DNA of 12,302 nt, from IMG/VR virus record IMGVR_UViG_2529293038_000015, one strand, 5' to 3'. Every line of letters begins with the position of its first letter. Positions within the stretch are counted from its first letter, which is position 1. Shown piece by piece: positions 7,718 to 11,693 of the stretch. A program made the translations under genes and the position numbers. Source of the stretch: a virus (lineage: Duplodnaviria; Heunggongvirae; Uroviricota; Caudoviricetes). The notes under the pieces were generated by a model. That model did not search any database, had not been told where the DNA came from, and saw nothing but the letters and a program-made list of their open reading frames with translations.

Positions 7718-10258
7718 ATGGGCAAAGGAAGCAGTAAGGGGCATACCCCGCGCGAAGCGAAGGACAACCTGAAGTCCACGCAACTGCTGAGTGTGATTGA
7801 TGCCATCAGCGAAGGGCCGATTGACGGTCCGGTGGATGGATTAAAAAGCGTGCTGCTGAACAGTACGCCGGTGCTGGACAGTGAGGGGAATACCAATATC
7901 TCCGGTGTCACGGTGGTGTTCCGGGCTGGTGAGCAGGAGCAGACTCCGCCGGAGGGATTTGAATCCTCCGGCTCCGAGACGGTGCTGGGTACGGAAGTGA
8001 AATACGACACGCCGATCACCCGGACCATCACGTCGGCAAACATTGACCGACTGCGTTTTACCTTCGGTGTGCAGGCACTGGTGGAAACCACCTCAAAGGG
8101 GGACAGGAATCCGTCGGAAGTCCGCCTGCTGGTTCAGATACAACGTAACGGTGGCTGGGTGACGGAAAAAGACATCACCATTAAAGGCAAAACCACCTCA
8201 CAGTATCTGGCATCGGTGGTGGTGGGTAACCTGCCGCCGCGCCCGTTCAATATCCGGATGCGCAGGATGACGCCGGACAGCACCACAGACCAGCTGCAGA
8301 ACAAAACGCTCTGGTCGTCATACACCGAAATCATCGATGTGAAACAGTGCTACCCGAACACGGCACTGGTCGGCGTGCAGGTGGACTCGGAGCAGTTCGG
8401 CAGCCAGCAGGTGAGCCGTAATTATCATCTGCGCGGGCGTATTCTGCAGGTGCCGTCGAACTATAACCCGCAGACGCGGCAATACAGCGGTATCTGGGAC
8501 GGAACGTTCAAGCCAGCGTACAGCGACAACATGGCCTGGTGTCTGTGGGATATGCTGACCCATCCGCGCTACGGCATGGGGAAACGTCTTGGTGCGGCAG
8601 ATGTGGACAAATGGGCGCTGTACGTTATCGGCCAGTACTGCGACCAGTCGGTGCCGGATGGCTTTGGTGGCACGGAGCCGCGCATCACCTGTAATGCCTG
8701 GCTGACCACACAGCGTAAGGCGTGGGATGTTCTCAGTGATTTCTGCTCGGCGATGCGCTGTATGCCGGTATGGAACGGGCAGATGCTGACGTTCGTGCAG
8801 GACCGACCGTCGGATAAGGTGTGGACCTATAACCGCAGTAATGTGGTGATGCCGGATGATGGCGCGCCGTTCCGCTACAGCTTCAGCGCCCTGAAGGACC
8901 GCCATAATGCTGTGGAGGTGAGCTGGATTGACCCGAACAACGGCTGGGAGACGGCAACAGAGCTTGTGGAGGACACGCGGGCCATTGCCCGTTATGGTCG
9001 TAACGTCACGAAGATGGACGCCTTTGGCTGTACCAGCCGGGGGCAGGCACACCGCGCCGGGCTGTGGCTGATTAAAACGGAGCTGCTGGAAACGCAGACC
9101 GTGGACTTCAGCGTGGGCGCAGAAGGGCTTCGCCATGTACCGGGCGATGTCATTGAAATCTGTGATGATGACTATGCGGGTATCAGCACCGGCGGGCGCG
9201 TGCTGGCGGTGAACAGCCAGACGCGGACACTGACGCTCGACCGTGAAATCACGCTGCCATCCTCCGGCACCACGCTGATAAGCCTGGTTGACGGAAGTGG
9301 CAATCCGGTCAGCGTGGAGGTCCAGTCCGTCACCGACGGCGTGAAGGTAAAAGTGAGCCGTGTTCCTGACGGCGTTGCCGGATACAGCGTGTGGGGGCTG
9401 AAGCTGCCGACGCTGCGCCAGCGCCTGTTCCGCTGCGTGAGTATCCGTGAGAACGACGACGGCACGTATGCCATCACCGCCGTGCAGCATGTACCGGAAA
9501 AAGAAGCCATCGTGGATAACGGGGCGCACTTTGACGGCGACCAGAGCGGCACGGTGAATGGTGTCACGCCGCCAGCGGTGCAGCACCTGACTGCCGAAGT
9601 CACCGCAGACAGCGGGGAGTATCAGGTACTGGCCCGCTGGGATACGCCGAAGGTGGTGAAGGGCGTGAGTTTCATGCTTCGCCTGACCGTGGCAGCGGAT
9701 GACGGCAGTGAGCGGCTGGTCAGCACAGCCCGGACGGCGGAAACCACATACCGCTTCACACAACTGGCGCTGGGGAACTACAGGCTGACAGTCCGGGCAG
9801 TAAATGCGTGGGGGCAGCAGGGCGATCCGGCATCGGTATCGTTCCGGATTGCCGCACCGGCAGCGCCGTCGCGGATTGAGCTGACGCCGGGTTATTTTCA
9901 GATCACCGCCACGCCGCATCTTGCGGTTTATGATCCGACGGTACAGTTTGAGTTCTGGTTTTCGGAAAAGCGGATTACCGATATCAGGCAGGTTGAAACC
10001 AGCGCGCGCTATCTTGGCACGGGGATGTACTGGATAGCCGCCAGTATCAATATCAAACCGGGCCATGATTATTACTTTTATATCCGCAGTGTGAACACCG
10101 TTGGCAAATCGGCATTCGTGGAGGCTGTCGGTCAGGCGAGCGATGATGCGGAAGGTTACCTGGATTTTTTCAAAGGCCAGATAACCGAATCCCATCTCGG
10201 CAAGGAGCTGCTGGAAAAAGTCGAGCTGACGGAGGATAACGCCAGCAAACTGGAGTAA
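7718..10258 (+). CDS. J: Tail tip host-specificity protein J, N-terminal 846 aa; truncated by IS4 insertion, stop codon supplied by the IS4 terminus
   Basis: ATG 7718 with GGAG at 7706-7709; [45 protein letters not shown].. is near-identical to lambda gpJ (1132 aa) over its whole length; the TAA at 10256-10258 is the first three bases of the IS4 end (TAATGCC). Confidence 0.9.
10243..10255. repeat. Target-site duplication (left copy) CAGCAAACTGGAG of the IS4 insertion
   Basis: Identical 13-mer at 10243-10255 and 11681-11693, immediately abutting both IS4 ends; it is J coding sequence (..ASKLE). Confidence 0.8.
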
Positions 10259-11680
10259 TGCCAGTCAGTTAAGCAACTGACTGGCTCTTTTTCGGGGCTG
10301 TGGGGTATTTCCAGGGCCTCTCCTTTACCACTCTCGGGAAGGCCCTTTCCCTTCTTGTCGGTAATTTCACAAGTTGTCCCATACTTGCAAGATCGCGCAT
10401 CAGCTCCGGTATACGTCCCGGTGAAGCGCCCTGCAATGTCATCAGCATTCTCATCACCATTCCGCATGATTCTGAGAAACTCAGTTGATTCGGCCAGTAA
10501 CCTTTCAGATGTTCCGCCATTTTAATCATCTGATATCTCACCAGATTATAAGCCAGTAAGACACCCCACAGCTCTTGCTCCACAAGCTCCGGCTTTTTAC
10601 TTCTCAGCGTCAGCCTGCTCCGTTGCATCGTCTGTTTTATCTCCCTGTATCCCAGTTCGATTTCCCAGCGATGACTGTACAGATCCCCCATTTCTCCTCC
10701 GGGGAAGCGCATGGCGTCCGTCATCGACGTCAGCAGATGGCAGACTTTTCCTTTGCGCGTCACGGTCAGCAGGCGGGCAGTCACTTCATTTCCCAGTCCC
10801 GGCCACTTTTTTCGTGCCTGCGGGCTGGTTTTCAGCTTCACCAGATGATCGCCTTTACCCAGTTTTCTGATCTCTTCATATTGCGCTCCCTTTCTGAGAG
10901 GTATCATCCAGTGGCGGTGTTCTCCCGCCAGGCTCCAGGCATTTAACAGTCCCAGTGAGTAATAACCTTTATCCATTAACGTCAGAGTGTTATCGCCGGT
11001 TTGTTCTATAAGTTGCTCAGCAAGCTCATTTTCGCTGTTCTTCATCGTGCCGAAGGCTGCAGCCGTCAGCAGATGGCTGGTCAGTTCCATCTGGCAGACC
11101 ATTTTTGACCTGCGGGTAGAGCGCGGGTTCCCGGCATGTGTCTGGCGGGGAAGGCTGCATCGTTCTCTGGTGTATCCGGTGTGCGCCAGAACACACCATC
11201 GATGGCCAGCAGGGTCAGGCCGCACCAGTGCGGATGCGGCGTGGCGTTATGCCAGAGCTGCGCTGTTTTCGTGAACACGCGGCGGACAGCCTCACTTCCC
11301 AGGCGCTGGCGGGCCTGAATAACGGCACTGGGGGCAACGAAGGGGCGATTGCCCTGCAGCATGATGTCCAGGCGATTCACAATCTGGTGAAGAGGTTCTT
11401 TACGCTCAAGCGCCATGCCAACAATACACCAGACCATCATTTCGAGGGGAAGACGGCGCTTGCGTAGCGTTACAGTACCTGATTCGGCAAGGCAACGAGA
11501 GATGAGTTCGGGGTCGAGGTAATCCCCCAGAGAAGTCAGTGGGTTACGCAGAGAATCGTAACGGGATACCAGATCAAGAGCCTGTCCAATGTGCATAAAA
11601 AAATCCGGAAACAAGTGAGCGTTTCCGGATTCTTACACAGCCACTGGATCGGTCAACTGATCCTTAACTGATCGGCATTA
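10256..11680 (-). mobile_element. IS4 insertion sequence (1425 bp) inserted in gene J
   Basis: Ends TAATGCCAGTCAGTTAAG (10256-10273) and CTTAACTGATCGGCATTA (11663-11680) form 16/18 imperfect inverted repeats; flanked by 13-bp direct repeats; encodes an IS4-family transposase on the - strand whose sequence matches IS4 InsG (MHIGQALDLVSRYDSLRNPLTSLGDYL..). Confidence 0.9.
10269..11596 (-). pseudogene. insG: IS4 transposase (InsG-like), carrying a 1-nt frame disruption at about 11144-11152
   Basis: The N-terminal ORF (ATG at 11596, MHIGQ..ENDAAFP) and the C-terminal ORF (..[16 protein letters not shown], stop at 10269) are in different frames and overlap by ~145 nt. The joined length is ~442 aa, as for intact IS4 transposase. 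The frame switch maps to a G4 run (+ strand 11147-11150). Confidence 0.85.
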
Positions 11681-11693
11681 CAGCAAACTGGAG
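11681..11693. repeat. Target-site duplication (right copy) CAGCAAACTGGAG of the IS4 insertion
   Basis: See left copy; the J reading frame resumes through this copy (..KLEEFSKEW..). Confidence 0.8.

Follow-up and report, generated by a model that had tools for sequence, protein, structure and literature searches.

The C-terminus of J, the host specificity protein of phage lambda, has an established role in adsorption. Structures of lambda J are available for the full chain (PDB 8iyk), for a chain of residues 1-835 (9e7m), and for separate pieces covering residues 830-994 and 713-1132. IS4 of Escherichia coli K-12 (insG) is the founding member of the IS4 family of insertion sequences (IS). It is 1426 bp long, carries 18-bp terminal inverted repeats, is flanked by a 12-bp duplication, and its transposase contains the Nterm_IS4 and DDE_Tnp_1 domains and the YREK motif. 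For the IS4 subgroup, De Palmenaer et al. (Table 1; PMC2266710) list sizes of 1400-1650 bp, ends of the form -AATR--------WTW, and direct repeats of 10-13 bp. Here we describe a prophage stretch in which the two systems meet. The stretch, referred to below as the window, is the viral record IMGVR_UViG_2529293038_000015 with its full length of 12,302 bp, and corresponds to one whole contig of a draft whole-genome shotgun assembly (AIFB01000003.1, GCA_000249195.2). An earlier note, made from the sequence alone, had claimed that IS4 interrupts gene J in this stretch and that the prophage is very likely unable to form infectious particles. The analysis presented here bears on both claims.

IS4 and its insertion into gene J

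The element occupies positions 10256-11680 of the window and is 1425 bp long; it lies antiparallel to J, the transposase being encoded on the minus strand. Comparison with IS4 sequences, annotated as insG or as IS4-like element IS4 family transposase, gave 99.7-99.8% identity with 100% of the element matched, and the full-length identity to the K-12 element was 99.7%. Only four differences separate the two: a T gained at 11102, a C lost at about 11123, a G lost at about 11146, and a G-to-T substitution at 11355. The first three are homopolymer indels, and the transposase frame of the window copy is broken, unlike that of K-12 IS4. The element is bounded by 18-bp terminal inverted repeats, TAATGCCAGTCAGTTAAG and TAATGCCGATCAGTTAAG, which agree with each other at 16 of the 18 positions and do not differ from the ends of the K-12 element. 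The transposase-distal repeat, TAATGCCAGTCAGTTAAG, lies at 10256-10273 and fits the subgroup signature, while the transposase-proximal repeat, CTTAACTGATCGGCATTA, was placed at 11663-11680 by comparison with the ends of K-12 IS4. With the pattern TAATG........TTA at both ends and a length of 1425 bp, the element falls within the subgroup in both signature and size. It is IS4 itself, a member of the IS4 family and of the IS4 subgroup. The earlier description of a 1425-bp element with IS4-type imperfect 18-bp inverted repeats agrees with these data in coordinates and in the nature of the ends, and the assignment to IS4 is borne out by the full-length match to the K-12 element. IS4 copies covering at least 80% of the element were present in 2,480 of 5,426 complete E. 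coli genomes.

A repeat scan located two copies of the 13-bp sequence CAGCAAACTGGAG, the left one at 10243-10255, where it encodes the J residues ...SKLE, and the right one at 11681-11693. The copies are 100% identical and each abuts one end of IS4, so that the perfect 13-bp direct repeat claimed by the earlier note is found flush with the element. The probability that a 13-mer matches by chance at two fixed positions is approximately 4^-13. A duplication of 13 bp lies within the 10-13 bp range of the IS4 subgroup and is one base pair longer than that of K-12 IS4. IS4 entered by staggered cuts spaced 13 bp, and CAGCAAACTGGAG was duplicated in the process.

To reconstruct the empty site, positions 10256-11693 were deleted in silico and one copy of the 13-mer was kept. 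The excised J reads continuously through the junction up to a frameshift near 11958. The earlier note had predicted exactly this, a continuous J open reading frame (ORF) apart from a distal frameshift. A 600-nt probe centred on the excised junction was up to 99.5% identical to annotated uninterrupted gpJ genes and was covered to at least 80% in 2,593 of the complete E. coli genomes searched; identity to J of lambdoid phages reached 98.3%. Intact J of the genomes 2013C-3264 and 55989 contains a single copy of the 13-mer, at nt 2526, the same position as in the excised window, and the alignment of the excised window with both genes is gap-free across the junction. The flanking 13-mer is thus J sequence in uninterrupted prophage homologues, as had been assumed. 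The claim that J resumes in frame immediately after the right-hand repeat stands for the excised gene, but not for the window as it is, where the downstream part of J is offset by +1 because IS4 and the repeat together measure 1438 bp (3 × 479 + 1).

A single-copy target that has been duplicated, together with exact IS4 termini, is the signature of real transposition and not of simple misassembly. Therefore, we conclude with high confidence that the window records a genuine transposition, in an E. coli-type genome, of IS4 into the J gene of a lambda-like prophage. The IS4 insertion is also the sole lesion in the window that does not depend on base-level accuracy.

Truncated J and the apparently defective transposase

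The truncated J, the tail tip attachment or host specificity protein, is encoded on the plus strand at 7718-10258 and comprises 846 codons. Its stop codon, TAA at 10256-10258, consists of the first three bases of IS4; the ORF list and the translation agree with the earlier note on this point. Four Pfam domains, FNIII-A_GpJ, Phage-tail_3, Ig_J, and Ig_J_second, are contained in 7718-10255. The remainder of J, at 11694-12302 on the plus strand, holds Phage_Tail_Tip (11694-11957) and the start of Ig_GpJ_C (12050-12302) and runs off the contig. In comparison with two intact J genes, this remainder also carries a -1 frameshift at about 11958 (C4 to C3, near codon 935), leading to a stop at 12000-12002. 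An intact J frame of about 1130 amino acids (aa) is consequently not present, as there is a stop after codon 846 and a second disruption at the distal frameshift. The J of the window is, as read from its sequence, a pseudogene.

The position of the break within the protein can be judged from an intact 1137-aa relative, in which Pfam places FNIII-A_GpJ at aa 86-207, Phage-tail_3 at aa 330-498, Ig_J at aa 610-714, Ig_J_second at aa 716-818, Phage_Tail_Tip at aa 845-972, and Ig_GpJ_C at aa 1001-1136. The break at aa 846 falls at the N-terminal edge of the fibre domain, Phage_Tail_Tip, and upstream of the C-terminal receptor-binding Ig_GpJ_C domain. In line with the earlier note, the insertion cuts the receptor-binding part off from the remaining J sequence, and the truncated protein lacks the fibre and receptor-binding domain while the hub domains are kept. 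The pieces in which lambda J structures have been described likewise put residue 846 at a boundary between hub and fibre domains. Lambda J (PDB 8iyk and related entries) shares with the J of the window the order of the tail genes and the series of Pfam domains, and the intact 55989 relative aligns with it over residues 1-1136 (E = 0). Unlike lambda J, the window gene is interrupted after codon 846 and frameshifted further downstream. By analogy, a virion built from the 846-aa J would fail to recognise the host receptor, and the earlier proposal that the prophage would yield no infectious particles can reasonably be inferred from what is known of lambda.

The sequence around the insertion was scanned for expression signals by consensus. 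A hairpin with a perfect 11-bp stem, followed by TCTTTTT, was found on the plus strand at 10260-10285, 2 nt past the new J stop, and resembles a terminator for transcription coming from J. The transposase stop codon lies within reach of this hairpin, the two overlapping at the transposase-distal end of the element, and in its orientation the hairpin would be predicted to block incoming transcription. At the right end of IS4, no plus-strand promoter-like site facing the 3' fragment of J was detected in the consensus scan. An outward promoter driving the 3' fragment was considered and set aside on this ground. Since no promoter-like site points toward it, the 3' J fragment is most likely not expressed.

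The transposase gene of the element is divided into two ORFs, 11614-11081 and 11225-10269, instead of one uninterrupted ORF, a feature absent from the earlier note. The N-terminal fragment, on the minus strand at 11081-11614, contains Nterm_IS4 (E-value 6.6e-34), leaves the true frame at about 11146, and ends with a stop at 11081. The C-terminal fragment, on the minus strand at 10269-11225 and out of frame with the first, contains DDE_Tnp_1 (E-value 1.3e-26) and the YREK motif, Y-(2)-R-(3)-E-(6)-K. The three homopolymer indels lie within 45 bp, at 11102-11146, and amount to a net change of -1. As written, the gene is a mutated or mis-sequenced single-ORF gene and not another type of gene organisation, and this IS4 copy reads as non-autonomous. 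It could be remobilised only with transposase supplied by another IS4 copy. The loss of a G at about 11146 (G5 to G4) is shared with IS4 copies annotated as frameshifted by RefSeq in the complete genomes MS8345 and ECO_1_S, so at least this change may represent a real, circulating defective IS4 variant. The gained T, the lost C, and the substitution are private to the window contig among the IS4 copies compared. Upstream of the transposase start, a promoter-like site, TTGACC-16-AAGAAT with a preceding TG, was assigned to 11629-11656 on the minus strand by consensus match only.

Occurrence of the insertion and the target sites of IS4

When the two J/IS4 junctions were searched by megablast, none of the 5,426 complete E. 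coli genomes showed a match over 80% or more of either query. In 50,697 phage records, searched with the whole interrupted region, the J/IS4 junction was likewise absent. The single phage record that covered at least 80% of the region, LR595863.1 (Escherichia virus Lambda_4B5), carries its IS4 elsewhere: the element, complete and with an intact transposase (4281-5706 of the locus), lies immediately downstream of J, before the next tail-fibre gene, and is flanked by a 14-bp duplication, CACCAGAAATGGTG. A 40-nt left junction had no exact match in the GTDB species-representative genomes, a search that is uninformative here as E. coli has one representative in that set. The exact 846-aa J product has been recorded from the window contig only. 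Among the genomes searched, only this assembly carries the insertion, which could therefore serve as a strain or lineage marker.

Other insertions were seen in lambdoid tail regions and prophages, none of them at the site occupied in the window. In DCE7, the closest complete-genome relative of the tail module, the annotated J gene (locus 13978-16212) overlaps an IS66-family element (tnpC, tnpB, tnpA) at its 3' end, suggesting that this end of the gene was hit by an IS independently. In the unrelated clinical isolates ECO_1_S and 118UI, IS4 is located between the prophage FI (DNA-packaging) and major capsid genes, with the same duplication, CCCCGAAGGGCC, in both.

For the analysis of target preference, seven distinct IS4 sites were chosen by IS4 identity alone and not by their flanks. 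Five flanking sequences collected earlier had been picked by their likeness to the flanks in the window, and were set aside as biased. The seven sites comprise the K-12 site, fumB/fumC, degS/mdh, bamD, treF/yhjB, adhE, and the prophage FI/capsid spacer, and their duplications measure 11-14 bp. At six of the seven sites, the duplication has an A-run within a few bases on its left and TTT three or four bases to its right. Most of the sampled sites are intergenic, and several are terminator-like hairpins of the form AAAA-stem[duplication]stem-TTTT. In contrast to these intergenic, terminator-like sites, the J site lies within coding sequence. It reads ATAACGC[CAGCAAACTGGAG]GAGTTTTCG (ATAACGC[13]GAGTTTT), so that the right arm fits fully, with TTT three bases past the duplication, and the left arm fits in part. 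With one mismatch the J site agrees with AAAN20TTT; so do, at no more than one mismatch, 41 positions in the 10.8-kb excised window. A target consensus that would single out the J site was rejected on account of these 41 positions, which fit equally well.

Alternative explanations and the state of the prophage

The Pfam families of the called genes outline a lambda-type tail module, Z-U-V-G-T-H-M-L-K-I-J, in which H is in two pieces, and both Pfam and the annotation of syntenic loci put J at the end of the Z-U-V-G-T-H-M-L-K-I series. The contig starts within gene Z and ends within J, about 260 bp short of the expected J stop, and its ends probably correspond to repeats common to other lambdoid prophages of the same genome. 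The module is 97.6-98.9% identical to prophage modules of complete E. coli genomes, for example DCE7, 55989, and E2348/69, and contains no larger deletions relative to intact relatives. It does contain small indels, of which those in H and L are not mentioned in the earlier note. The tape-measure gene H, a single 3057-bp gene in 55989 and DCE7, is split into 2269-3588 and 3591-5324 by the loss of a G at 3565 (GGCGG to GGCG), and is either a pseudogene or the product of a homopolymer sequencing error. Gene L (5663-6364) has a G gained at 6055 and T/G gained at 6155-6156 relative to the same two genomes; approximately 33 codons are read in the wrong frame until the correct one is regained, the changes introduce no stop, and the ORF appears intact at 233 aa. 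Each of the seven small indels in the window alters the length of a homopolymer, and six of the seven fall into two tight clusters.

As the window is a whole short draft contig and E. coli genomes often carry several copies of IS4, at up to 32 places each, the interruption could have arisen during assembly, the consensus of a multicopy IS4 having been misthreaded into the contig of a J gene that is intact in reality. The clustered homopolymer indels within the element do resemble a low-quality consensus. However, a misjoin would not generate exact IS4 termini at both junctions together with a perfect 13-bp duplication of single-copy J sequence, which makes an artefact very improbable. A different matter is whether the insertion, though real, came second, into a tail module already dead through the frameshifts in H, L, and distal J. 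If these frameshifts, all relative to 55989 and DCE7, are real, the module is damaged at several points, and the IS4 insertion may be neither the earliest lesion nor the sole one. On the other hand, each of them is a single-base homopolymer change in a draft contig and may be a sequencing error, and the window is otherwise 97.6-98.9% identical to intact modules and lacks larger deletions. The order of the IS4 event relative to the tail-gene frameshifts is not readable from one sequence; we consider a secondary insertion possible but doubtful.

It could also be argued that J is split yet functional, the 846-aa hub and a separately translated C-terminal fragment assembling non-covalently into a working tail. 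The break does fall at a structural domain boundary, and an in-frame ATG at 11739 offers a possible start. Against this, no promoter-like site faces the fragment, the terminator-like hairpin lies close within the IS4 end, the fragment has a frameshift of its own at about 11958, and the absence of the insertion from the 5,426 complete genomes gives no sign that it has been maintained. A working split J is thus the least probable of these explanations and hardly credible. In a broader form of the idea, the hub of a two-piece J would nucleate fibre-less, receptor-blind tails or particles, or would pair either with a separately produced C-terminal fragment or with J from another lambdoid prophage in the same host. 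This, too, is highly unlikely; if it were true, the insertion would re-purpose the prophage rather than kill it.

Several points weigh against a genuine IS4 transposition that abolishes J and infectivity. Contig-level errors are possible in a single 12.3-kb contig of a draft assembly. The homopolymer indels fit sequencing error as well as decay, so the distal J frameshift may be unreal, and the homopolymer pattern means that the defective transposase may also be a sequencing error. The J site is compatible with the IS4 target preference but not diagnostic of it, and gives weak support. As for the loss of infectivity, the analysis covered the tail module, the remaining prophage being outside the window.

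The insertion of IS4 into J is a known element acting by standard insertional inactivation of a prophage structural gene, and as such already known biology. It adds one more case of IS-driven prophage decay. In annotation, the J ORFs at 7718-10258 and 11739-12002 are to be treated as one IS4-interrupted pseudogene, and the IS4 transposase as frameshifted. When prophage induction or host range is predicted, the tail module should be treated as probably non-functional.

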